A stretch of 49,508 bases of DNA from Terriglobales bacterium (GCA_049698855.1 JBAVYO010000234.1:1-49508); one strand, 5' to 3'. Shown: positions 3,044-48,386, numbered from the stretch's first letter. Notes: generated by a model from the sequence alone, not told the origin. Made by a program: numbers and translations.

Positions 3044-4067
3044 ATGCGCGTTCGTTATCAGCGAGGATAACTGCGGGTCGGTCATCGAAAGACCGGAGCT
3101 GACTGTTGGGAGTTTCTTTGGTGGGATCGTGAACTTACTGGAAAACGGGTTCGGCGCAAAGCCGTAATTGGTACCATTCAGCAGCATCCAAGTGTAGAAG
3201 ACGCGTGGCAGGCGAGCAACGGGCTCCGCGTGTCGATCAATGAGGTGCGAAATCGTCAATGTGAACAAGCCATCACAGTTGCGGACCTCGTCGATCACTA
3301 CAGCACGACCGAGCTGGTCGGTGATCTGGTTGATGGGGGAAAGACCCATGCTACCAGAACCGTCTACAGGGACTTCCTCGCGAGATGGGTGAAACCTACA
3401 TGGGGAACGCTGAACATCCGTGCCGTACGCACAATCGCGGTCGAACACTGGCTTCATCAACTCAGGCGAGTGAACGGCAATCCCTTGGCTCCTTCTACAA
3501 AAGCGAAATTGCGGAGCGTGATGAGCGTTCTCTTTAACCACGCCATTCGCCACGAGTGGATGGAGCAAGGTAGGAACCCCATCCTTCTGGTTCGCCAAAG
3601 CGCCAAGCGACAAAGATACCCCGAGTATCTGGAGCCGGAAACTCTGGGCTTGGAAGCAAGACAGCCCCCACGGGCAGTCTCATGATCGACTGTTCGCGAG
3701 CCCTCATAGTCAAGGAAAGAGGCCTTATTGGCCGGACATCCTTCTTTCTCGCGTCATTCAGCCTGCGGGCGGCTGGCACACGTTCCAGCACAGCTTCGCC
3801 ACCCTGTTGATGGCTAACGGAGAAAACGTAAAGGTCGTGCAGGAATTCATGCGGCACGCGAACTGCCGGTGCACGCTTGAAATTTATTCGCAGGCCCGAA
3901 TTCAAGCGAAGCGGGAGGCCCAGCATCGGGTTGGTGAGATGATCGTCCCTCGGGAGCGGGAAGCTACCGATGTTGAAGAGCCCTTCATTCTCGCGAAAAC
4001 GCCCGAGCGCTATCAGCAGCACTCGTACAGGGTCGCCGAGCCCGCTCAGAACTCCAATCGCGCCTGA
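3044..4067 (+). pseudogene. Tyrosine recombinase/phage-type integrase, degraded (premature stop, internal deletion/frameshift, active-site loss)
   Basis: It starts 'MRVRYQRG' with TAA at codon 9 (3068-3070), then continues in frame as 'LRVGHRKTGADCWEFLWWDRE...VRNRQ..ITVADLVDHY..' (SAM-like N-domain) to 3685. The C-terminal part 'LFASPHSQGKRPYWPD...GWHTFQHSFATLLMANGENVKVVQEFMRHA..LEIYSQA' lies in another frame. About 100 aa of the catalytic core are missing, and the HxxR motif reads HTFQH. Confidence 0.8.
3487..4001 (+). repeat. Direct repeat copy 1 (~0.5 kb, integrase 3' portion)
   Basis: It aligns base by base with 7532-8073 at roughly 9 of 10 positions by eye. It lacks a 27-nt segment that is present in copy 2. 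Confidence 0.85.
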
Positions 4068-7000
4068 AATGCGATCATGCGTGGACTGCTATCACCACCC
4101 AATCCGACGCCCAGCAAGCCCGTCGGCGGAGACGTTGTAGATGTGAGCGCTCCAAATCCACTCTGCGTGGAAGGATTTCCTGGAATGCCGGCCTGTACCA
4201 CGCTGGGAAGCGCAAAATTCGGATGGTTAAAGACATTAAAGAACTGACCCTCAAAGCGCAGCTTCAAATGCTCGGCCAGGGCAAACCATTTCGTGAGATA
4301 AAAGTCACTCCAGAGGAAATCGGGACCACGCAGAGCATTGCGACCGAGGTTTCCGAATTGGCAATTCTGCGGGCTGTCGCCGCCGTTGCACTGCCCTGTG
4401 CTCGGATCAACCGCTGACACAAATGCGTCCGGATTGAGCCACTGACGTGTTCCCGACGGCGTTACACCCGGAATCGGATGATGCTCATACAGCGGAACGC
4501 CGGGAACGAGGCTAGCAAACTCCGGCCCGCTGCCCTGCACAATTCCCTCTTCCTTCATGGTGATTGGATTGATCGCTGAATAGGGCGTGCTCAACACCGA
4601 GAACGGAACTCCACTGTGCCAAAACGCTGTTCCGGAAATCTGCCAGCCATTGAGAGCATACCCCAGAGAATGACTGTGCACTCGAACCGGCAGCTGATAC
4701 ACATATTGCGCATTGAGATTGTGCCGGATGTCATAGTCGCAAGGGCCATAATCGCGGGCCAGTTCGCCCGGCAGAGGCGAGAGAATCCCTCCCGAGGAAA
4801 ACGAAAGGAACCCACCGTTCGAGACCGTATCCATACAACGGCTCCAGGTGTAGTTGACCTGTCCTTGCAAGCCGTGGCCGAGCCGCTTCATCGCGGTCAG
4901 TTGAAGGCCGTTGTAGTGACTGTTCGCGCCGGTGGAGAATTGCGTCGCTGCGCCAAATCGCGGATCGGTGGGTTGCATGTAGGGGAACGGCGCAAAACAA
5001 CCCTGGCACACGGTTTGGTAGCCGTTCACCTGGGTTGAGTATGGCTGATTCACAGCGCGCGTGCCCACGTACTGAGCGTGCAGGCTGGCAGTCGTTCCGA
5101 ATTGATGTTCAATTCCCAGACTCCACTCCATGAAATATGGGGCGTGGAGTTTCCCATCGGGGACGGCTGTAATCGCAGGTGGTGGAAGCGAGCGCTGGCC
5201 CTGGGGAAATCCCAACGTAAACGCCTGATTCGCGGCAATGATCGCACTGACCGCACTGTTGGGCGCTCCCGGCGCGATGGCCGTACCGCCGACGCTGCCA
5301 AGCTGTCCTCCCTGAAACGTCTTATCGTAGGGGGGATTGGTGCCGACTAGGTCGGCTATCGTACCCGGCAAAATGTCGCTGAAAATTCCAAAGCCGGTGC
5401 GGAGCACTGATTTCGGCTCGAACTGCCAAGCAATCGCCATTCTCGGCTGCAAAATGGCCACCGGCGTGGACGAGAACAGATGGCCGAGATGAGTCTCGAT
5501 GACCTCGTTCAGCGGTTGACTGGCCTCATGCGAGATGGAATTGAAGGAGCCACTAAGACGGGCAACTTGATCATGTGGGCTCAGCGGATTGGAGTTGAAG
5601 GTGTCGCGCAGACCGAACGTCCAAGTCAGCGCGGGAGTTACTTTCCAAGTGTCCTGCGCATAGAGATCGAGATTGAGAAAGTTGAAGGGCTCATTTGCGT
5701 TCGAAGCGAAGGTCTGCGACGCGGTGTTCGCCACTCCAGAGATAAATTGCTGCAAGGTTGCGTAGGTCACGGTGGGAACTGTGCCTTCGCCAAAGTCGTA
5801 GTCGTTCAGGCGGAAGATCCGGGTATTGGTTCCAAACCGCAGTTCGTGAGCGCCATGACTCCAGGCGAGATTGTCGTTGATGAAAAACCGCGTGGCGCGC
5901 CGGCCTTGCACCCAGGTATTGTCAAGCCCGCCAATGGGCGTGAAGGGGTTCGCTCCGGTGCCCTGTAACACGATTGGGAACGCTGAAAGTGTCTGCTGAA
6001 GATTGCGTGGCCCAAACAGGCTTTCGTACCAAGAGAACGCGGGATTGAAGTAGTTCACCAGGTTCTGCGAGAAGACGTGCGTATGCCCTGCCGCAAACGA
6101 ATAAAGAGGCTGCGGCGAAAACGCATTGAACACCGGGTTGATGGGGTCAGTCCACGCAGCTTGTAGTCCCGTGTCCGACTGAAGACGAAACCAAGTCGTA
6201 TCCTTCTCGTTGAGGTTGTAGTCGAAGCGGAAAGTCTGAACCTGTTCGTGGTCGTCGCTGGTGTTTGAAACGCTTTGCTGGTTCGCGCAACCATACCCAG
6301 CCGCGAGCGGACAACCGTCGATCGGGTAAGCTGTGCCGCCGGTATTTCCGTAGAGCGAGAACATCTGTTTATAAAACGGCACCTCCTGCGATGGAAGTTG
6401 TCCCAACACGTATGTCTGGAAGGCTAAAGCAGGCACAATCGTGGGTGCGACAATGGGCAGCGCAATCCGCACCCATTCGCTGTCGAAGAAAAAGAAAAGT
6501 TTGTCGTGCGCAATGGGCCCGCCCACACTGCCTCCAAAATGATTCACGGTCGATCTGGGCTTATAACGTCCTGGCACCGCGTTGGTAAAGTAGTCCGCCG
6601 CGTTCAATAATGAGCCATTCCATAGTTCGTACAGATTTCCGTGAAACTGGTTTGTGCCGGACTTGGTGACATAGTTGATCTGCGATGCTCCGTATCGTCC
6701 TTGATCCACGGAATAGGAGAGTGTGTTGACGGTCACTTCCGAGATTGAATTCAAACCCAGAACGAGGTTGGTGGAAAGGCCGCTATTGAGATTGGTGAGC
6801 GGGTCGTTTGTTTCCAGCCCGTCAACGATGTAGCCGTTTGAGAGGGCGGGCAGGCCGTTGAATTCCACGTTGCCATATCCGTTGCTGCCGCCGACGAAAT
6901 CGTTACTGCTACCCGCAGTATTGATGAGAGCCCCGGGCGCAAATTGCAGCGGGTACGTCAGGTCGCCGCCCGGATTCGGCAGGTCTTCTAGCGCTGGCGC

Positions 7001-14986: not shown

Positions 14987-15063
14987 TGGTAGGCACGAGG
15001 AGACTCGAACTCCTGACCTCTACCGTGTCAAGGTAGCGCTCTAACCAACTGAGCTACGCGCCT
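14987..15063 (-). tRNA. tRNA-Val (anticodon GAC), CCA encoded
   Basis: The reverse complement folds as a cloverleaf: AGGCGCG-TA-GCTC-AGTTGGTTA-GAGC-G-CTACC-TTGACAC-GGTAG-AGGTC-AGGAG-TTCGAGT-CTCCT-CGTGCCT-A-CCA. Confidence 0.93.
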
Positions 15064-16093: not shown

Positions 16094-17191
16094 TCACGCG
16101 ACCTGACGCCGCTTGTCGAGCAGGCGCAGGAATTCCGCGGTCAGTTCTTCATCCCAAAGGCCGGCCTTGGCTTCATCGCACATGGTGTTGACGCTTTGCT
16201 CGTGCGTTAGAGCCGGCTTGTAAGGGCGCGCCGTCCTCAGAGCGTCATAGACATCGACGACTTGCAGAATGCGCGCCAGCAGAGGAATCTCCCCATCACT
16301 GAGGCCGTCGGGATAGCCGCTGCCGTCGGAATGCTCGTGATGATGGCGGATAATCGGCAGCACCAGGCGCAGCGACCTAAGCGGCCGGCAAATGGTCTCT
16401 CCCACCACCGGATGCTGCTTCATAATCTTCCATTCATCCGGCGTCAGATTGCTGCCCTTTTTCAGAATTTCATCCGGCACAGTGATCTTGCCGAGATCAT
16501 GCAAGTAACCTCCACGGCGCAAAGCAGTCACGCATTCGTCATCCAGACCGAGATGGCGTCCTAATTCGCTGGCGTTGCGCGCGAGGCGTTCGCAATGGCC
16601 TTCGGTGTAAGGATCGCGCGCCTCGACGCTCAAACCGAGCGTGCATAACACTGACTCCGCCGTCTCCAGTTCGTCGGTGAATTCCTTCAGCTTCAGAAGC
16701 GATTTCACCCGCGCAAACATCTCCTCGGAACCGATCGGCTTGATCAGGAAATCGTCGGCTCCAGCCTCGATCCCGCGCAGGCGGTCTTCATGAGCGTTGA
16801 GGCCGGTGATCATGACCACGGGGATCAAACGCGTTGCCGGATCGTCCTTCAGTTCGCGGCAAAGTTCGTAGCCGCTCTTACCGGGCATGATCACGTCGAG
16901 CAGAATGAGATCGGGCGGATCGCTGCGAATCTGCGCTTCGGCATCGGCAGCGCTGGACGCGATGGAAACCGCATAGCCGCGCGTTGCGAGCATCTCCCGC
17001 AGCAGCTCGGCATTGAGACGATGATCGTCGACCACCAGAATGGATTGCTTGCGGCGACCCGGGACGACCTCACCCATAGAAGAATGAGAGCTGGAGTGCA
17101 GGGAAAGGGTTGCCCTTGTACGACGCGGGGGAACGTTCATTGCCACACCTTGTATTGATTTTAACAGGCTGGGGAATTCTTCGTTTGGCAT
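16094..17191 (-). CDS. Response regulator with receiver domain and HD-GYP phosphodiesterase domain (RpfG-type)
   Basis: REC domain: 'ILVVDDHRLNAELL...DLILLDVIMPGKSGYELCRELK'. HD-GYP domain: 'HCERLARNA...YLHDLGKI...HHHEHSDGSGYPDGL'. Alternative starts at 17140 and 17077. Confidence 0.88.
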   Translation of the reverse strand: MPNEEFPSLLKSIQGVAMNVPPRRTRATLSLHSSSHSSMGEVVPGRRKQSILVVDDHRLNAELLREMLATRGYAVSIASSAADAEAQIRSDPPDLILLDVIMPGKSGYELCRELKDDPATRLIPVVMITGLNAHEDRLRGIEAGADDFLIKPIGSEEMFARVKSLLKLKEFTDELETAESVLCTLGLSVEARDPYTEGHCERLARNASELGRHLGLDDECVTALRRGGYLHDLGKITVPDEILKKGSNLTPDEWKIMKQHPVVGETICRPLRSLRLVLPIIRHHHEHSDGSGYPDGLSDGEIPLLARILQVVDVYDALRTARPYKPALTHEQSVNTMCDEAKAGLWDEELTAEFLRLLDKRRQVA

Positions 17192-17414
17192 GGGATTTCC
17201 GGCTACTGCCCCTATCGCACGGATTCGGAACCGATTTTGGTTGTCGCAGCTGCTCGTTTGTAGCGCCGGCGTCCCGCCGGCTGTCCGGCGGGCGTCCTCG
17301 CCCGCCGCACCTCAAGGCTCTTCTCGTCTGACGCAATACCTGCATCCAAAAACCGACCATTTCCCATGTTCACCGGTCATAGCCGCCGCCGCAAACCGGT
17401 GCCACGCTCAAGGA

Positions 17415-18089
17415 ATGAAACTCCGTAAACTCCAGCCCCTGTTCTTCGCGCTCGCTCTTGTCTGCACCCTCACCTGTCCATGCGCCGCCGTTCCCAAGCC
17501 GCACGTCATCGCCTTCGGCAAATGGATCGCCGCCAAATATCCCAACGCCACCGGCCAAAAGCTCCTCGACCTCAAAGTCCGCCCACTATTCGTCGATACG
17601 CGCCTCAAGGAGTACACCACCGGCGCTCCCCACGATCTGACCGACCGTCTCTTCGTGGTGCGGCGCGCCTTCCGCATTAACGACGCCCTGCCAGCCGAAA
17701 CCACCGCGCACTGGCAATGGCAGCGCGGAGGCTGGCTTCTCGTCGACCGCCTCACCGGACGCGTCTCGCAACTCAACCTGCCCGAGTTCGATCCTTATTA
17801 TTCGGCCGCGAGCTGGTATCGCGACTACATCGCCTACTGCGGAGTCTCCGACGACGGCAAAAAGCTCTATGCCATGGTGGCGCAGGTAGGACGCCGCAAG
17901 CCCGTCCTGAAAAAAGATGTAGGCGAGCCCGCCGCCGGCGACGATCCCGATTCCGAATGCCCTCCGCCAGCCTGGGAGCGCAGCCCCATGCGCGTGACAT
18001 TTGTGCCCGACGAGGATCAGAAGGTAGTCTTCTCCATCCGCAACCGCGTAGTCGACGTAGTGAACGACGCGGAAGAAGCGGAAGAATAG
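17415..18089 (+). CDS. Hypothetical secreted protein
   Basis: ATG at 17415 preceded by 'caagga'. Signal peptide 'MKLRKLQPLFFALALVCTLTCPCAAVP'. The ORF-track start at 17190 would run through a REP-like GC palindrome and overlap the divergent regulator start. Confidence 0.6.
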   Translation: MKLRKLQPLFFALALVCTLTCPCAAVPKPHVIAFGKWIAAKYPNATGQKLLDLKVRPLFVDTRLKEYTTGAPHDLTDRLFVVRRAFRINDALPAETTAHWQWQRGGWLLVDRLTGRVSQLNLPEFDPYYSAASWYRDYIAYCGVSDDGKKLYAMVAQVGRRKPVLKKDVGEPAAGDDPDSECPPPAWERSPMRVTFVPDEDQKVVFSIRNRVVDVVNDAEEAEE

Positions 18090-18099
18090 CCCGCGTAGG

Positions 18100-18161
18100 G
18101 GCGGACGCATTCGTCCGCCAAAGGATCCTGATTTTGGGTGGCGCAGCGGTTCACCGCTGCG
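18100..18161. repeat. Two GC-rich REP-like stem-loops (ggcggacg-catt-cgtccgcc at 18100-18119; cgcagcgg-ttca-ccgctgcg at 18142-18161)
   Basis: Both are 8-bp GC stems with 4-nt loops, starting 10 nt after the stop at 18089. No U-tract. A similar stem-loop, cccgccgg-ctgt-ccggcggg, is at 17273-17292. Confidence 0.6.
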
Positions 18162-18192
18162 ATGAGGGTACCCCCCTCCCCCGGTCTATTGG

Positions 18193-18261
18193 AATCAAGA
18201 CTTTGGCGACAAATTTTTGCAAAGTCTTGAGCCGTAAGCAGTTATAGTCAAAGTCTTGATT
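18193..18261. repeat. Three copies of an 11-13-nt motif (aatcaagactttg / caaagtcttga / caaagtcttgatt) at the left edge of the AT-richer islet
   Basis: Copy 1 (18193-18205) is the reverse complement of copies 2 (18220-18230) and 3 (18249-18261). Confidence 0.7.
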
Positions 18262-18494
18262 ACGCATTACTTACGTCTGATCCCCCACTTTTTCCCCGGA
18301 TCAGCGGGCAGTCTTGGGACGACAATTGAGTTGGGCCCGCTGGATTCAGGGAATATGTGTTGATCAATTTTGTCACTTAGTAAGTGGCGTTGTCTATGAC
18401 GTAGGACACATGGAAATTGTGATGAATCAAGTACCGAAATGGGACGGTAGGGAGCCTCAGACCTCGCTAGACCCGCCCGTTCACTCGAAACTCT

Positions 18495-18620
18495 CTATGG
18501 AATGGGGTCAGTCAATTTTTTTGTTGGATGACCGTATGAGAAATAGTCATAGTAGAAGTCGCTTGCCTTCGTAATGGACAAGAGCATTCGATGGAAACGA
18601 AGCTTTAGGAGTTTGATGTC
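18495..18620 (-). pseudogene. Orphan 41-codon open frame, the probable displaced 3' end of the 484-aa gene
   Basis: Minus-strand translation from 18620 gives 'DIKLLKLRFHRMLLSITKASDFYYDYFSYGHPTKKLTDPIP*'. It has no start codon of its own. It abuts the outer edge of the left 32-bp inverted repeat. Confidence 0.45.
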
Positions 18621-18621
18621 C

Positions 18622-18653
18622 CTAATTAGGGCAAGGATATACTTGACCCGACC
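18622..18653 (+). repeat. Left 32-bp inverted repeat: ctaattagggcaaggatatacttgacccgacc
   Basis: The reverse complement of 20457-20488 is ctaattagggcaagaatatacttgacccgacc, with a single mismatch. Confidence 0.9.
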
Positions 18654-18671
18654 ACGCTATTTCTGTATTAT
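18643..18671 (+). promoter_or_regulatory. Sigma70-like promoter: TTGACC - 17 nt - TATTAT, reading into the cassette
   Basis: The -35 (18643-18648) lies inside the left repeat, and the -10 is at 18666-18671. The first ATG (18679) is about 7 nt after the -10, giving a leaderless or very short leader. The next ATG is at 18694. Confidence 0.55.
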
Positions 18672-18678
18672 TTGAGTC

Positions 18679-19173
18679 ATGGAGAACAAGGCCATGACCG
18701 AACCTAAGAGTCTGCAAGAAGCAATCGTCTACTTCTCGAACCCCGACAACTGCATTGACTATCTCGCTGTCCGCCGTTGGCCGAACGGTAAGGTTGTCTG
18801 CCCCACTTGCGGTTGCGAGACTGTCAAATTCAGCGAGAAGCGCCGAACTTGGACTTGTGCGAAGCATCATGCAAAGCGCGAGTTCTCCATCAAGATCGGC
18901 ACCGTCATGGAAGATTCCGCTATTCCTTTGGACAAATGGCTCACCGCAACTTGGCTGGTCACCAACTGCAAGAACGGAATCAGTAGCTATGAGATTGCGC
19001 GTGATGTGAAGGTCACCCAAAAGTCGGCATGGTTCATGCTTCACCGGATTCGCCTTGCTATGCGGGACGATTTCTTCGGTTCCAAACTGGGCGGCGAAGT
19101 CGAAGTCGATGAGACTTTCATCGGCGGCAAAGCGCGAAACATGCACGCCTTGGAGTCGGAAACGCGGGCCTAA
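18679..19173 (+). pseudogene. IS1595-family (ISXO2-like) transposase, N-terminal 164 aa only: Zn-ribbon plus HTH, with the DDE domain missing
   Basis: 'FSNPDNCIDYLAVRRWPNGKVVCPTCGCETVKF...WTCAKHH..FSIKIGTVMEDSAIPLDKWLTATWLVTNCKNGISSYEIARDVKVTQKSAWFMLHRIRLAM'. It stops just after 'VEVDETFIGGKARNMH', where the DDE domain normally begins. Confidence 0.75.
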
Positions 19174-19457
19174 TCCGCCGCGCTCTCAGTCTCGCCCCGA
19201 AAACTGATGCGATCCGCAATTTCCCCAAGAGCCTGATAGGACTTCTGGAAACTGTCCACATTTGGGCGAATGGCACTGTCGTATTGTTTCCTGCATCCGG
19301 GACAATCCTTCGGACAAAAGGCATTGTCATATTTTTGAGCCAATTCGTGCGGTTCCTTCATGTCGAGAGTAACGACCGTCTTACAAAGCGGACACTCGAT
19401 AGAAACGAATCGCAGATCGGCAAGCGATACTACAAGTTGTTTATGCATGAGCAACAT
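19170..19457 (-). CDS. Hypothetical 95-aa Cys-rich (possible zinc-ribbon) protein
   Basis: It has a CPLC...CPKDCPGC pattern. Its ATG overlaps the stop of the upstream 49-aa ORF (TAATG). Its stop overlaps the transposase-fragment stop by 4 nt, in convergent orientation. Confidence 0.5.
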   Translation of the reverse strand: MLLMHKQLVVSLADLRFVSIECPLCKTVVTLDMKEPHELAQKYDNAFCPKDCPGCRKQYDSAIRPNVDSFQKSYQALGEIADRISFRGETESAAD

Positions 19458-19606
19458 TATGGTCGCTCTTTTCTTGCCGTGGAAGCCCTAGCCCGCTTTT
19501 TCTGTGCTCGTTTACGCCTCCACTCTTTGTCGCGCTTCTGGATTTCTTCGTGGGACACAGATAGAAGCCTTCGCACCACAGCATCGAACTTTTCGCTCTC
19601 GGTCAC
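19457..19606 (-). CDS. Untracked 49-aa basic protein (GTG start): VTESEKFDAVVRRLLSVSHEEIQKRDKEWRRKRAQKKRARASTARKERP
   Basis: The GTG overlaps the TGA of the DUF3800-like gene (GTGA) and is preceded by 'agaaaggggg'. Its TAA overlaps the next ATG (TAATG). It is too short for the supplied ORF track. Confidence 0.5.
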   Translation of the reverse strand: MTESEKFDAVVRRLLSVSHEEIQKRDKEWRRKRAQKKRARASTARKERP

Positions 19607-20361
19607 GCCACCCCCTTTCTCTTGTCTTCCAATTCTTTGATAGCCTCAAGGCCCCGTTTGTCTATCCAGTGAGAATAGATACTAGCCTTCATGCCCAGCA
19701 TGGTTTCTAGGGCTTTCCTCATATCTCGACCCGTCCACAGCGTGTCATCCAAGCGTCGCATTAGTTCGTAGGCAATCAAATCGGCGCTTTGTAGTCCTAC
19801 GTCTTCTCGCCAAGTGAGCGGGGTAATGCTCACAAAACGGTGCCGTCTCGGCCATGTTGGGTCATCAACTAAACTGTTATAGCCACGCAACGCCCCTTCG
19901 TCCCAGTCGCCGTGATCATGGATGATTGCAACCCGATCCTCACTCTTCGCGTCATCCATCGCATGGGCTATTTCTACCATTATTTCTTTCATACACAGGA
20001 CGTAAGCGTCAGACTCGTCGGCAGTGGGAAATATCTCAACCATTGCCTTTAGGTCTATACCGCAGGCAACGCACGTCATGGCCGGACTGCTAACGAACTT
20101 TAGAAGCTTGCGCACTAGCCTAAGTTTTCTATTCGCCTCTTTTTCCCATCCAGTGAATTCCCCGTCGTTGGCGTTCATCTGAGCCGCGTGGTACCGAGAT
20201 ATTTGCCTATCAGGTCCGAGGGTCCGATTTTCGTAGGCGATGGCCTTCTGCCATCTCTTCTGCAATCGCTTCCATTGGTGGTCGTTTGCAATCCAACCGC
20301 CCACCATGAAACTCCTCTTCTCTTTGTAGCTTTCATCAAACTTGAACGTGAGGACAGCCAT
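19603..20361 (-). CDS. DUF3800-like protein
   Basis: N-terminal 'LTFKFDESY' (DES motif) and C-terminal 'GLQSADLIAYEL' (QxxD motif), both typical of DUF3800. The ATG at 20361 has a GGAGGG Shine-Dalgarno sequence. The ORF-track start at 20415 would lie close to the predicted transcription start. Confidence 0.6.
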   Translation of the reverse strand: MAVLTFKFDESYKEKRSFMVGGWIANDHQWKRLQKRWQKAIAYENRTLGPDRQISRYHAAQMNANDGEFTGWEKEANRKLRLVRKLLKFVSSPAMTCVACGIDLKAMVEIFPTADESDAYVLCMKEIMVEIAHAMDDAKSEDRVAIIHDHGDWDEGALRGYNSLVDDPTWPRRHRFVSITPLTWREDVGLQSADLIAYELMRRLDDTLWTGRDMRKALETMLGMKASIYSHWIDKRGLEAIKELEDKRKGVA

Positions 20362-21790
20362 AACCCTCCGTCCTTTCCTGTCGGGATGAACAATGTGCGC
20401 TATTTCGCAAATCATCGCGCACCCCCGCCCTGACGACCATCATGCGCTTTGCGCTCGGTCGGGTCAAGTATATTCTTGCCCTAATTAGATCCACGATTTC
20501 TTCGGTCTCGCTGGTACCTCCGTGTGCCGCAGCGTTCCGTCGACTCCATGCCCTTTTCTCTCTTTCTCCCAGATCGAGCTGGAGAAGGGCCATAAGATTT
20601 TCCGTAACAAGGCTCTGAGGTCGTGCGTTTAGCCCATCGAGCTTATTCTTCATGATCCCTTTCACCTTCTCATCGACTGCTAGCACCGAAATTGCGCTTT
20701 CCGCAGAAGCCTTGATCCGCTTCCACTCTTCACGTTCGAATAACTTTGTCTTTAGGGCATTCCTATTCGCCTTTAGATATGATCGCTGTAGGGCCTCGAC
20801 AACCGCACCAAAATGGACGGCTGCAATATGCGGTGTCGCACACACGGCGTGCCAATATGCCCAGCTTAGATGACCAAAATCGAGAGCGTCATAGTTCGAA
20901 TAAATCGAATTGACCATTCGGGACAGGACATCCCGATCAAGTTCGCCTTCATAATTCTTTCCCAGAGGAGACGGGGGCAAAGGCGGCAGTTCAAAAGCTT
21001 TTCTTCCTAAACTATAAGCGCTGATCGCCTCAAACGAGGCTAATGCCCAATCTTCGGAAAACGTTGAACACCCAAGATAGACAAAGTATGTGCCCAGCGA
21101 AAAGGAGAGGCATCTTCTTACTTTGTTCCTAAATTCTTCCGTAGGAGCGCCCATATACAAAATGAAACCCGGCTTGCTGACCGTCTTTGCGGCTGCTGGC
21201 GTGGCTGCACAGAGGTAAAGTTCTCGCCCGTCAACACTAATCTTCGCGCAATTCCTGCTTGATGCCGTGTTTCTTCTCCCCGCTTTCAGAACCGGCCCGC
21301 TATTGCCGCCGCAGAGCGTGCGCGTTTTTGTGATCTCAGTCTCATCATCGCAAGTGTCGGGCCAGAGAAAGGAGTCATCCACGTTAGCTAGCCAGTCAAT
21401 GACGTGCTTTGGTTCAAGACTCGGGGCGATAGTTCCCCTAAGGCTGTGTATTGAGCACTCCTCTCGCAATTCACTCTGCGCTGGATCGCCAAAGAATGAG
21501 CTTTTCCAGCCACGCGACTGCACGCCCGCAGCGACGACTTCTATGCCCCTGCCATCGGATAGTGTCACTGCATCAGTGTTAACGCGCACCGTCCCAAGAG
21601 GATAATCAGCGGCAATGCTCGTAGCGGTTTGCTCAGCCCGAGTTTCCATGATCAGTTTAAGTTTTTCATCTCGACTGATAGAGAAACGACGAATGGGAGC
21701 CCGAAGTGGACCGCTATCCACAATATTGAAGGAGTTGTTATTTAGAAGCCTCTCGAAAGATTCCCACTCCCAGTCATACGTCAAAGGCAT
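20336..21790 (-). CDS. Hypothetical 484-aa protein with a C-terminal HEPN-like R-x4-H motif. Its 3' end is probably replaced by the cassette insertion.
   Basis: No family was recognised for the N-terminal ~300 aa. The C-terminal helical region contains 'FGAVVEALQRSY' and 'AWSRRNAAAHGG' (RNxxxH at 20522-20542). The last ~50 codons read through the right inverted repeat and promoter and are Arg/Ser-rich junk. Confidence 0.55.
   Translation of the reverse strand: MPLTYDWEWESFERLLNNNSFNIVDSGPLRAPIRRFSISRDEKLKLIMETRAEQTATSIAADYPLGTVRVNTDAVTLSDGRGIEVVAAGVQSRGWKSSFFGDPAQSELREECSIHSLRGTIAPSLEPKHVIDWLANVDDSFLWPDTCDDETEITKTRTLCGGNSGPVLKAGRRNTASSRNCAKISVDGRELYLCAATPAAAKTVSKPGFILYMGAPTEEFRNKVRRCLSFSLGTYFVYLGCSTFSEDWALASFEAISAYSLGRKAFELPPLPPSPLGKNYEGELDRDVLSRMVNSIYSNYDALDFGHLSWAYWHAVCATPHIAAVHFGAVVEALQRSYLKANRNALKTKLFEREEWKRIKASAESAISVLAVDEKVKGIMKNKLDGLNARPQSLVTENLMALLQLDLGEREKRAWSRRNAAAHGGTSETEEIVDLIRARIYLTRPSAKRMMVVRAGVRDDLRNSAHCSSRQERTEGYGCPHVQV
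20439..20467 (-). promoter_or_regulatory. Sigma70-like promoter: TTGACC - 17 nt - CATGAT, reading into the cassette toward the DUF3800-like gene
   Basis: The same -35 lies inside the right repeat (20467-20462, minus strand), and the -10 is at 20444-20439. Downstream, 'ggacggagggtt' (GGAGGG) precedes the ATG at 20361. Confidence 0.5.
20457..20488 (-). repeat. Right 32-bp inverted repeat
   Basis: See the left repeat. This copy lies inside the 3' tail of the 484-aa ORF. Confidence 0.9.
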
Positions 21791-48309: not shown

Positions 48310-48386
48310 GGCGGTGTAGCTCAGGTGGTTAGAGCGACGGTCTCATAATCCGTAGGTCGTAGGTTCGAGTCCTACCGCCGCCACCA
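48310..48386 (+). tRNA. tRNA with CAU anticodon, an elongator type: tRNA-Met or lysidine-modified tRNA-Ile2. CCA encoded.
   Basis: GGCGGTG-TA-GCTC-AGGTGGTTA-GAGC-G-ACGGT-CTCATAA-TCCGT-AGGTC-GTAGG-TTCGAGT-CCTAC-CGCCGCC-A-CCA. G1-C72 is paired and the anticodon stem lacks the GGG/CCC run, so it is not an initiator. Confidence 0.9.

Follow-up and report, generated by a model that had tools for sequence, protein, structure and literature searches.

A probable transposase-deleted, passenger-carrying IS1595-family element in a Terriglobales bacterium

The window, that is, the whole stretch of 49,508 nucleotides analysed here, carries a cassette of 1851 bp (duplications excluded) that lies between the two parts of an interrupted gene (Table 1). 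On the plus strand, the cassette holds a gene for the N-terminal part of a transposase (the stub), and on the minus strand it holds three cargo genes, which code for a DUF3800-like protein, a small basic protein (orf49) and a small Zn-ribbon protein (orf95). The set of ORFs and their convergent layout (18679-19173, 19170-19457, 19457-19606 and 19603-20415) were recovered as the initial annotation had given them, and the convergent stop codons of the stub gene and orf95 overlap at 19170-19173.

Table 1. Coordinates of the cassette and the interrupted host gene in the window
Feature	Position	Strand	Basis or detail
Host gene 3' remnant	18495..18621	-	Reconstruction; codes, together with one duplication copy, for the C-terminal 44 residues, LIRDIKLLKLRFHRMLLSITKASDFYYDYFSYGHPTKKLTDPIP
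Target-site duplication, left copy, CTAATTAG	18622..18629		Identical to 20481-20488; excision restores the host ORF
IRL, GGCAAGGATATACTTGACCCGACC	18630..18653	+	Fits the subgroup end consensus GGCAATAATATACTTGAC; pairs with 20457-20480
Predicted transposase promoter, -35 TTGACC inside IRL, 17-nt spacer, -10 TATTAT	18643..18671	+	Consensus scan
Truncated transposase gene, 164 aa	18679..19173	+	Pfam and NF033547 matches; N-termini of relatives
Deletion junction	19145..19147		About 496 bp, transposase codons from about 152 through the stop, absent relative to L099
orf95, small four-cysteine Zn-ribbon protein, 95 aa, intact, last gene of the cargo operon	19170..19457	-	13 homologues
orf49, conserved small basic protein, 49 aa	19457..19606	-	Subgroup HMM; stop overlaps orf95 start (TAATG)
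DUF3800-like cargo gene, 270 aa maximal ORF	19603..20415	-	Pfam match near threshold; 4-nt overlap of its stop with the start of orf49
Predicted cargo promoter, -35 TTGACC inside IRR, 17-nt spacer, -10 CATGAT	20439..20467	-	Consensus scan
IRR, GGCAAGAATATACTTGACCCGACC (minus-strand reading)	20457..20480	-	Repeat search and family end comparison
Target-site duplication, right copy, CTAATTAG	20481..20488		Same 8 bp as the left copy
Host gene 5' part, 434 codons	20489..21790	-	504 homologues, typically 470-490 aa, aligned to residues about 5-433

The repeat search returned 18622-18653 and 20457-20488 as inverted arms of 32 nt that are 97% complementary (31/32) and separated by a spacer of 1803 nt. 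By direct calculation, only about 7e-9 inverted pairs of at least 31/32 are expected by chance in 50 kb, and with as many as 3 mismatches tolerated, the 24-nt core was found at these two sites only in the window, a situation encountered in 0 of 100 shuffles. The match of 31/32 beyond chance, as initially annotated, therefore stands, whereas the repeat length of 32 bp does not. At the outer end of each arm lie 8 bp, CTAATTAG, that are their own reverse complement, and their occurrence at both flanks is a direct target-site duplication located outside the inverted repeat. Thus, the true terminal repeats are 24 nt long, with 23 of the 24 positions of IRL and IRR pairing and one difference between them. 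Both ends start with 5'-GG (GGCAAGGATATAC... and GGCAAGAATATAC...), and the subgroup consensus is GGCAATAATATACTTGAC. A REP element was considered as a source of the 32-mer and rejected, since full-length IS1595 relatives carry the same termini, which identifies the repeats as IS ends.

Three profiles were matched to the stub protein. Zn_ribbon_IS1595 (PF12760) covered residues 23-62 with 36.2 bits (cut-off 25.4), DDE_Tnp_IS1595 aligned over profile positions 1-22 of 153 only (18.4 bits, cut-off 27), and NF033547 aligned over profile positions 2-75 of 215 (73.5 bits, cut-off 75). The first two matches bear out the earlier assignment of the protein as the N-terminus of an IS1595-type transposase. 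The native part, residues 1-156, spans the Zn-ribbon and the HTH region and reaches into the DDE domain as far as its first strand, which bears the first Asp. The identity between the stub and the N-terminal parts of full-length relatives is 80-93%. The search found 7917 homologues, the complete ones being about 270-320 aa long with both domains; the complete DDE_Tnp_IS1595 catalytic domain present in these relatives is absent from the window copy. At the C-terminus the stub ends in 8 foreign, out-of-frame residues (ALESETRA) made by the deletion, and its translation may in fact begin at the second ATG (18694), which is preceded by GGAG.

The extent of the deletion was read from relatives that carry the same kinds of genes. 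L097/L098 and L099 are elements of 2393 and 2456 bp with perfect duplications, and they contain a DUF3800 gene, an ORF of 52-62 aa, a Zn-ribbon gene sharing 72-73% identity with orf95 and, in convergent orientation, an intact gene for a transposase of 315-323 aa. In a two-block alignment, positions 11-516 of the window element correspond to 11-516 of L099 at 85.6% identity and positions 518-965 correspond to 1013-1463 at 71%. The global alignment has a single gap of 496 bp, running from directly after "GGKARNMH" through the transposase stop codon, with no inserted DNA. These data contradict the view in the initial annotation that the catalytic half had been replaced by passengers: the cargo homologues occur in the same order beside an intact transposase in L097 and L099, and what separates the window copy from L099 is one clean deletion inside the transposase gene. 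We therefore regard the cargo as native and the catalytic half as deleted. Judged by its sequence, the window copy is a defective derivative of an IS1595-family member and not a functional member. Since the window DUF3800 gene is only 14-16% identical to its counterparts in L097/L099, the ancestor was a mosaic relative of L099 rather than L099 itself.

We delimited 57 non-redundant elements of this subgroup in soil Acidobacteriota, all with ends GGCAATAATATACTTGAC and with sizes of 1.3-5.4 kb; the 8-bp duplications are perfect in 53 of them and give the consensus CTAATTAG (C-T-A-A-T-T-A-G). Typically, a transposase of about 320 aa faces a convergent gene of about 50 aa (54/57), accompanied by cargo. 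The cargo of 25 elements includes a DUF3800 gene, that of 13 a HEPN-like gene. The latter class encodes proteins of about 290 aa that keep R....H in at least 85% of the 13 members, and the 1332-bp element L087 holds the transposase gene and orf49 only. The passenger genes beside intact transposases in L097 and L099 agree with the earlier suggestion of an IS1595 subgroup with passengers. Other short transposases of the subgroup, namely a gene split in two (P0009) and frameshifted copies (L018, L022 and L080), are unrelated random lesions. In the plasmid search, no named IS relative was found above 44% identity; the top matches on plasmids do not exceed 44% and bear no annotation other than "IS1595 family transposase". 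The element family is abundant and poorly described.

Among the cargo genes, orf49 is the most widespread. Its family HMM matches 54 of the 57 elements, nearly always directly past the transposase stop and on the opposite strand, and the homologue P0205 adjoins an IS1595 transposase of 316-321 aa at all 8 loci listed; orf49 is a core gene of the IS1595 subgroup. Proteins of this type form 3626 clusters in the public database, all of about 50-63 aa, and no Pfam family was found for them. A gene of the orf95 type was present in 8 of the 57 elements. Its 13 database homologues (54-81% identity) share invariant C22, C25, C52 and C55 and the same C-terminus. Fold comparison of its AF2 model (pLDDT 82.7) gave no informative match.

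For the DUF3800-like gene, the ATG at 20361, preceded by GGAGG, is a more likely start than that of the maximal ORF and would give a protein of 252 aa. The window protein scores 20.4-20.7 bits against Pfam DUF3800 (PF12686), just under the gathering cut-off of 21, and the cargo homologues of L003 (25.9 bits) and L042 (22.8 bits) exceed that cut-off; all 17 aligned cargo homologues match DUF3800 at E <= 0.01, the best E-value being 4e-10. In the cargo alignment, D-E-S and QxAD are invariant, corresponding to D9 (FKFDES) and Q191/A193/D194 (LQSAD) of the window protein, which thus has both the N-terminal DE and the C-terminal QxxD motifs of DUF3800 as defined in PMC7736814. A profile search of this protein against PDB sequences gave no match, and its single-sequence AF2 model (mean pLDDT 36.8) was unusable for the fold. 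The DUF3800 fold is reported to be RNase H-like (PMC7736814, PMC10910872), and an association of DUF3800 with mobile elements has been reported (PMC13594972).

Outside the cassette, the 5' part of the host gene now reads across IRR to a stop at 20336. Excising the element together with one duplication copy restored an ORF of 478 aa, whose product was aligned end to end with eight homologues (within P0254-P0265) at 40-47% identity. The restored junction, VDLIRDIKLL, aligned with the homologues, and invariant residues downstream are also kept. As reconstructed here, the element sits within a host gene of 478 aa that is conserved. In the homologue alignment of its product, R418 and H423 (RNAAAH) do not vary and constitute an Rx4-6H motif, as expected of a C-terminal helical HEPN domain; the HEPN assignment, for the host gene as for the HEPN-like cargo, is at the level of this motif, and the DUF4145 match is weak (E = 0.042).

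The inward-facing promoter-like sites TTGACC-17-TATTAT and TTGACC-17-CATGAT were found as initially annotated. A consensus scan of 18400-20700 gave exactly these 2 matches, and since 1.7 +/- 1.2 are expected by chance, the two sites alone carry no significance. Across the subgroup, a -10-like hexamer lies 17 +/- 1 nt past the in-repeat TTGAC at 48 of 55 left ends (shuffled mean 3.8, maximum 8) and at 27 of 55 right ends (shuffled mean 2.4, maximum 6), indicating that the predicted inward promoters are kept in these elements. Since the interrupted host gene is co-oriented with the cargo, read-through from it could also drive the cargo genes.

On the basis of the family membership, ends, duplication, empty-site reconstruction, deletion and promoter-element conservation described above, we conclude, with a probability of about 0.88, that the cassette is a defective passenger-carrying ("transporter") IS1595-family IS with its catalytic half deleted and its cargo native, a state of ordinary mobile-element decay. 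The ancestor would have been an element of about 2.35 kb consisting of IRL, a transposase gene (about 315-325 aa), a convergent Zn-ribbon gene, a gene for a basic protein of about 50 aa, a DUF3800 gene and IRR. It would have inserted at the preferred palindrome CTAATTAG within the 478-aa host gene, duplicating 8 bp. A later single deletion of about 496 bp would then have removed the transposase gene from directly past the first catalytic Asp (...DETFIGGKARNMH) through the stop codon, leaving behind the two inverted repeats, the 164-aa stub (Zn-ribbon plus HTH) and the cargo operon with all three genes intact. Autonomous movement has presumably been lost, so that at best a cognate full-length copy could mobilise the element in trans. 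The IRL promoter probably still expresses the stub, which, in the manner of IS1 InsA, could attach to the two repeats and weaken the promoters at both ends, and the cargo operon is probably expressed from the IRR promoter, by host-gene read-through, or both.

N-terminal derivatives of transposases are repressors in IS1 (InsA), IS911 (OrfA) and Tn5 (Inh). By this precedent, the cassette might be a domesticated regulatory module, in which the stub was selected as a repressor acting on both repeats and promoters and thereby controlling the DUF3800-like gene, orf49 and orf95. The stub is complete from the N-terminus to the beginning of the DDE domain, the -35 is conserved in both repeats, and the cargo ORFs are intact and translationally coupled. 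Furthermore, the diverged strain L002 shares the insertion and the deletion, its left flank being about 3.5% different; the visible 616 bp of the element has 4 differing sites, and the 164 stub codons show 2 synonymous and 0 non-synonymous changes. This pattern, along with the intact cargo and repeats, is compatible with selection on the remnant over plain decay, in numbers too small to decide, and the two synonymous changes are without statistical weight. Against domestication, the interruption of a conserved host gene with a perfect duplication is the signature of a plain insertion, the stub ends in out-of-frame residues that come from the deletion, and the other short transposases of the subgroup are unrelated lesions. 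In public assemblies, the exact stub protein occurred on 2 contigs only, which agree in their neighbouring genes, and the window's DUF3800 protein occurred in identical form on 1 contig. We consider domestication improbable.

It is still less probable that the cassette is live and non-autonomous, like the mobile insertion cassettes (MICs), a known class (PMC3129680), and that a full-length relative at another genomic site moves it in trans. In favour of this, neither 24-nt repeat is damaged, and the same population has active full-length relatives, as shown by L001, where a 2434-bp relative with perfect repeats sits inside the left duplication copy of the cassette. However, the repeats of that neighbour are identical to those of the cassette at only 17 of 23 compared positions and its transposase is 62% identical to the stub over the N-terminal 157 aligned residues, so that cross-recognition is doubtful. 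The deleted form was found at one locus only in the databases searched, the 49.5-kb window holds no second copy, and the public assemblies searched did not contain the several copies at different sites that would mark mobilisation in trans. Finally, replacement of the catalytic half by acquired passenger genes, suggested by the window alone because cargo stands where the 3' half of the transposase gene is expected, is barely credible given that the three cargo homologues co-occur in the same order with full-length transposases in L097, L098 and L099, orf49 follows intact transposases in 54/57 elements, and the difference from L099 is a single deletion without inserted DNA.

A broader proposal goes beyond the defective transporter IS and is put forward tentatively, as a possibility that we rather doubt. 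The window copy would have decayed from a member of an abundant IS1595 subgroup with two genes and apparently no name. In that subgroup, the conserved basic protein of about 50 aa would be a functional partner or regulator of the transposase, and an IRR-driven cargo slot would deliver interchangeable nuclease-like genes (DUF3800 or HEPN-like) to the preferred palindrome CTAATTAG; the stub plus cargo could mark the beginning of a path to a host module that represses itself.

Several known systems resemble parts of this locus. The DUF3800-like protein has the N-terminal D-E and C-terminal QxxD of DUF3800 proteins linked to mobile elements and defence loci, including retron type VII, the TPR-DUF3800 proteins by Cas12a2/a3 and DUF3800-associated RNA motifs. 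Its partner genes in the window differ, coding for the basic protein of 49 aa and the Zn-ribbon protein of orf95. The locus showed neither a reverse transcriptase nor a TPR domain, and neither a CRISPR array nor an Rfam DUF3800 RNA motif; the PADLOC defence search gave no match. Like IS1 InsA, IS911 OrfA and Tn5 Inh, the stub keeps the Zn-finger and HTH of an IS1-related family, and the inward -35 at both ends offers a predicted geometry for end-binding autoregulation. Those proteins, however, are programmed products of intact elements, whereas the stub is a deletion product with 8 out-of-frame residues. As in MICs such as IS231-MIC231, IS-type repeats bracket passengers in the absence of a working transposase and are flanked by a duplication. 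Unlike MICs, which are defined by mobilisation in trans and usually present in several copies, the window form occupies one locus and the stub remains; thus, "internally deleted IS" is a better name.

The closest likeness is to the transporter ISs, those with passenger genes, which are known for the IS1595 family (Siguier 2009, as cited in PMC3129680). The features described for IS1595-family elements (PMC8101967) are target duplications of 8 bp, a Zn finger at the N-terminus and the domain DDE_Tnp_IS1595. The subgroup shares the Zn_ribbon_IS1595 plus DDE_Tnp_IS1595 transposase (complete in relatives), the repeats starting with GG and the 8-bp duplications, and it carries passengers between its repeats, namely DUF3800, orf49 and orf95 in the window and also in L097 and L099. 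The transporter IS of Siguier, Gagnevin and Chandler (2009) are said to include the ISNwi1+ and ISPna2+ groups. Presumably, the subgroup sizes of 1.3-5.4 kb fit the transporter-IS range, and we take the ends to resemble the ISNwi1 signature GGnnatTAT. The window copy departs from transporter ISs in lacking the catalytic domain. The subgroup as a whole departs from the single-transposase-gene organization described for IS1595 (PMC8101967) by its second, near-universal gene of about 50 aa convergent to the transposase gene, and it also has a cargo slot beside IRR, which holds a DUF3800 or HEPN-like gene.

The structure bounded by the two inverted repeats is, at a probability that we put at roughly 0.88, an internally deleted, non-autonomous, passenger-carrying copy of an IS1595-family element that lies inside a HEPN-like host gene. 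The family assignment of the initial annotation was confirmed, since the 164-aa ORF contains an IS1595 Zn-ribbon and the start of the DDE domain, of which only the first 22 of 153 positions are present. The ORFs described there, the 4 nt (19170-19173) by which the convergent stop codons overlap, and both TTGACC sites with a hexamer 17 nt further on were likewise found as stated. The repeats themselves were taken to be 32 nt long, and the pair at 18622-18653 and 20457-20488 is indeed real, with one mismatch; its outermost 8 bp, CTAATTAG, however, are a direct repeat that looks like a part of the inverted repeat because it is a palindrome, which leaves a core of 24 nt. This core has no third site in the window even when three mismatches are allowed (0 of 100 shuffles), and direct calculation gave about 7e-9 such inverted pairs expected in 50 kb.

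Positions and composition of the features discussed in the text
Feature	Position	Strand	Description
Element proper	18630-20480		1851 bp; 24-nt repeats
Interrupted host gene	18495-18629 + 20489-21790	minus	reconstructed protein, 478 aa
tRNA gene	14990-15063	minus	with the next, the window's sole Rfam matches above gathering score
tRNA gene	48310-48383	plus	
L097/L098 element			DUF3800 286 aa, 62-aa ORF, Zn-ribbon 118 aa, convergent intact transposase 323 aa
L099 element			DUF3800 277 aa, 52-aa ORF, Zn-ribbon 105 aa, convergent intact transposase 315 aa
Elements with Rx4H cargo			L010, L012, L013, L018, L022, L023, L031, L046, L050, L051, L066, L074, L089

For comparison, 80 loci were taken from species-representative genomes with the 164-aa ORF as the probe, and more were added via exact-protein look-ups. 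Element ends were delimited by searching for the motif GGYAANNATNTACTTGAC upstream and downstream of each transposase gene, which yielded 55 nonredundant elements, and the addition of L097 and L099, two loci with full-length relatives, brought the set to 57. Related elements with a full-length transposase bear the family ends. Identical 8-bp sequences are present outside both ends in 53 of the 57 elements; therefore, the family generates 8-bp target-site duplications, as has been published for IS1595 elements (PMC8101967). The duplication consensus from these 53 flanks is symmetric (C-T-A-A-T-T-A-G); C1 and G8 each reach 70%, and the center is A/T-rich. The window carries the exact consensus CTAATTAG, as do loci L001 and L029, and L018 has TTAATTAG. 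This palindromic consensus points to a sequence-preferring choice of target by the IS subgroup.

The 13 homologues of orf95 (54 to 81% identity) led, through their loci, to the full-length relatives in L097/L098 and L099. The former element is 2456 bp long with the perfect duplication AAAGCTCT and the latter 2393 bp with the perfect duplication TTCGTAAG. When the window element was aligned with that of L099, its block 11-516 matched L099 11-516 at 85.6% and its block 518-965 matched L099 1013-1463 at 71%. The global alignment contains a single 496-bp gap that opens after ...AACATGCA and closes precisely at the stop codon of the transposase gene. Native transposase sequence thus stops at residue 156 (...DETFIGGKARNMH) and is followed by 8 codons to a chance stop, which read the antisense of the orf95 3' end. 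The segment 19147-19173 matches the L099 sequence just after the transposase stop at 25 of 27 positions without a gap; it also partly resembles the internal "VSERKRR" coding segment, and this resemblance may represent a microhomology that mediated the deletion. A 1-nt frameshift and, after it, a breakpoint near 19168, suggested by comparison with locus L003, were dropped in favor of the L099 comparison.

It had also been proposed that the cassette is a domesticated module with a retained DNA-binding domain. This alternative is unsupported. Short transposases elsewhere in the family go back to lesions unrelated to this one; recurrent selected stubs of about 156 aa were considered and rejected, as P0009 represents a normal transposase gene that has been broken into ORFs of 156 and 147 aa. 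The further proposal that passengers replaced the catalytic half is wrong: L097 and L099 carry cargo and an intact transposase together, the window copy has a 496-bp deletion, and the cargo was not gained in exchange for the catalytic domain because these genes are the normal load of the element. The passenger-carrying nature recognized at the outset is borne out by the same cargo gene types beside intact transposases in L097/L098 and L099.

The internally deleted copy also occurs on other contigs. In L001 and L009, the sequence of the element is identical to that of the window. L002 comes from a diverged strain, whose left flank is about 3.5% different and in which the insertion and the deletion are both present. 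Comparison of window 17000-19245 with L002, in which 616 bp of the element are visible, revealed 4 differences in this part, namely, one in the left repeat (IRL), two synonymous ones in the stub, and one in orf95, with the amino acids of the stub unchanged. Such a small number hints at constraint, but the differences are far too few for a test, and the low divergence may equally be due to a recent sweep or to chance. L001 contains another IS1595 relative, this one full length (3779-6228), exactly in the left CTAATTAG copy, a site that corresponds to window position 18622. It is 2434 bp long, with perfect repeats GGTAACTATTTACTTGACTGACC, a gene for a 321-aa transposase, and minus-strand ORFs of 49, 100, and 262 aa, and the resulting order is duplication-IS-duplication-IS-duplication, in which one duplication copy is common to both elements. 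Judged from the contigs compared, this arrangement shows relatives active in the population and preferring this target. Neither the window nor L002 has this second insertion; it is therefore polymorphic and presumably recent.

The element interrupts a minus-strand ORF, and when 18630-20488 is removed, the 434 codons to the right continue in frame into the 44 codons to the left. Homologues of the 434-residue part number 504, and most of them are 470 to 490 aa long; the reconstructed protein was aligned end to end with eight of these at 40 to 47% identity. The alignment spans the junction (VDLIRDIKLL versus IDLIKDIKLL), and invariant residues are present in the part encoded left of the element. 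An empty site in a near-identical strain was searched for and none was recovered; for this reason, the empty-site comparison suggested in the initial annotation was made by reconstruction from the homologues at 40 to 47% identity. The host protein has no match in Pfam, NCBIfam, or PADLOC. An invariant Rx4H (RNxxxH) motif, which precedes the insertion point by 16 residues, suggests a HEPN-type domain. Host gene and IS lie in a low-GC stretch of about 18.1 to 21.9 kb (GC 0.46 to 0.55 versus 0.58 to 0.65 in the flanks). Left of the host remnant lies the intergenic segment 18096-18315, where the window and L002 differ most (about 25 differences within 220 bp); it contains an inverted repeat (18193-18212 and 18242-18261); the hairpin (18193-18261), with imperfect 20-nt arms of 85% complementarity and a 29-nt loop, is present in L001 too.

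The sampled loci come mostly from Acidobacteriota metagenome-assembled genomes (Terriglobia, Bryobacterales, and "Candidatus Acidoferrales/Sulfotelmatobacter"), and the elements range from 1.3 to 5.4 kb, with a mode at about 2.1 kb. Their usual layout is IRL, a plus-strand gene for a transposase of about 320 aa, a minus-strand gene of about 50 aa, a cargo gene, and the right repeat (IRR). The ~50-aa gene, which encodes a basic protein homologous to orf49, directly follows the transposase stop, and the minus-strand gene of about 250 to 330 aa upstream of it adjoins IRR. An HMM of the small protein matches 54 of the 57 elements, and the 1332-bp element of L087 consists of the transposase and the ~50-aa gene alone. 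The large cargo is DUF3800 in 25 of the 57 and, in 13, a protein of about 290 aa that matches DUF4145 weakly and has a conserved Rx4H motif in its C-terminal part; the two are mutually exclusive. A four-cysteine Zn-ribbon gene homologous to orf95 occurs in 8 of the 57. When a full-length transposase was compared with plasmids by tblastn to find a named relative, identity did not exceed 44%, and all the names were generic. Five loci (L012, L013, L030, L049, and L075) contain two IS1595-family transposase genes 2 to 5 kb apart, and in L027 (5831-7750) the transposase gene is split by an insert of about 1.9 kb with a 464-aa ORF; these six look like nested or clustered insertions.

Relatives of orf49 form at least 3626 clusters in a public protein database, all of about 50 to 63 aa and without a Pfam family, some of whose entries are mislabelled "U3 small nucleolar ribonucleoprotein component". 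The basic 49-aa protein has the core motif E.EKFD..VRKVLSVSHDEL.RREK.W and, after it, a tail rich in K and R. In every locus inspected, this gene and an IS1595 transposase gene are convergent, and P0205, a sampled member, adjoins a 316- to 321-aa IS1595 transposase in all eight places shown. Neither a search of PDB sequences with the orf49 profile nor one of Pfam with the orf49 family returned a match.

In the window, orf49 and orf95 are full length, and DUF3800 retains its invariant D-E-S and QxAD motifs; its start is more likely the ATG at 20361, which has a GGAGG 5 nt upstream. The three cargo genes overlap by 4 nt and 1 nt and are therefore a coupled operon. DUF3800 proteins have been described as RNase H-like; their genes are reported to lie often beside retrons, Cas12a2/a3, or structured RNAs and to be associated with mobile elements (PMC5737381, PMC7736814, PMC10910872, PMC13594972). 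Rfam revealed neither a DUF3800-associated RNA motif nor any other RNA in the cassette at E ≤ 10, and only two distant tRNAs in the whole window at gathering thresholds. PADLOC gave no meaningful hit for any of the four proteins of the cassette, for the reconstructed host protein, or for ten cargo proteins from the family. The DUF3800 profile had no match among PDB sequences, and single-sequence AlphaFold2 gave an unusable model (pLDDT 36.8); the orf95 structure was predicted confidently (pLDDT 82.7), and its Foldseek search against PDB returned generic Zn-ribbon noise only (E ≥ 0.37).

At 14 to 16% identity, the window DUF3800 is not an ortholog of its counterparts in L097 and L099; its closest relatives (51 to 61%) are encoded in L090 to L096. 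A family repeat lies about 50 bp upstream of DUF3800 in L090 to L093, and L091 to L093 also have an orf49 homologue downstream. From these relationships, cargo modules appear to have been exchanged between elements. On long contigs, L094 (5001-5816) and L096 (5001-5767) contain DUF3800 homologues 52 to 59% identical to that of the window, and neither a family repeat nor orf49 nor a transposase is close by; these homologues could be chromosomal copies that stand alone or elements that have decayed completely.

Inward-facing promoters had been predicted in both repeats, and for 55 elements we aligned the outermost 80 nt at either end. TTGAC occupies positions 14 to 18 of both repeats. A TAnnnT hexamer follows at 17 ± 1 nt in 48 of the 55 on the transposase side (shuffled controls: mean, 3.8; maximum, 8), and one is present in 27 of the 55 on the cargo side (mean, 2.4; maximum, 6). 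The predicted sites are therefore conserved, with stronger support for the left end. Since the −10 hexamer is not part of the repeat, the fact that it is conserved speaks for a promoter function and not just for binding of the transposase. A −35 within IRL is a classical IS arrangement. The cargo operon and the interrupted host gene have the same orientation, and read-through from the latter could thus contribute to cargo expression.

For the window alone, the outcome is annotation: a conspicuous repeat pair is explained as a dead transposon disrupting a HEPN-like host gene. The wider value is in the element family, which is highly abundant in soil Acidobacteriota, includes a conserved small gene without a database name, has a clear palindromic target preference, and transports DUF3800 or HEPN-like genes. 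By virtue of these properties, it is a tractable natural system for DUF3800 function and for how IS1595 elements gain and express cargo. The window copy, as a defective transporter IS, is an object of a known kind; any novelty would be at the family level, in the near-universal small second gene, the cargo position with DUF3800 or HEPN-like genes, and the preference for CTAATTAG as the target.
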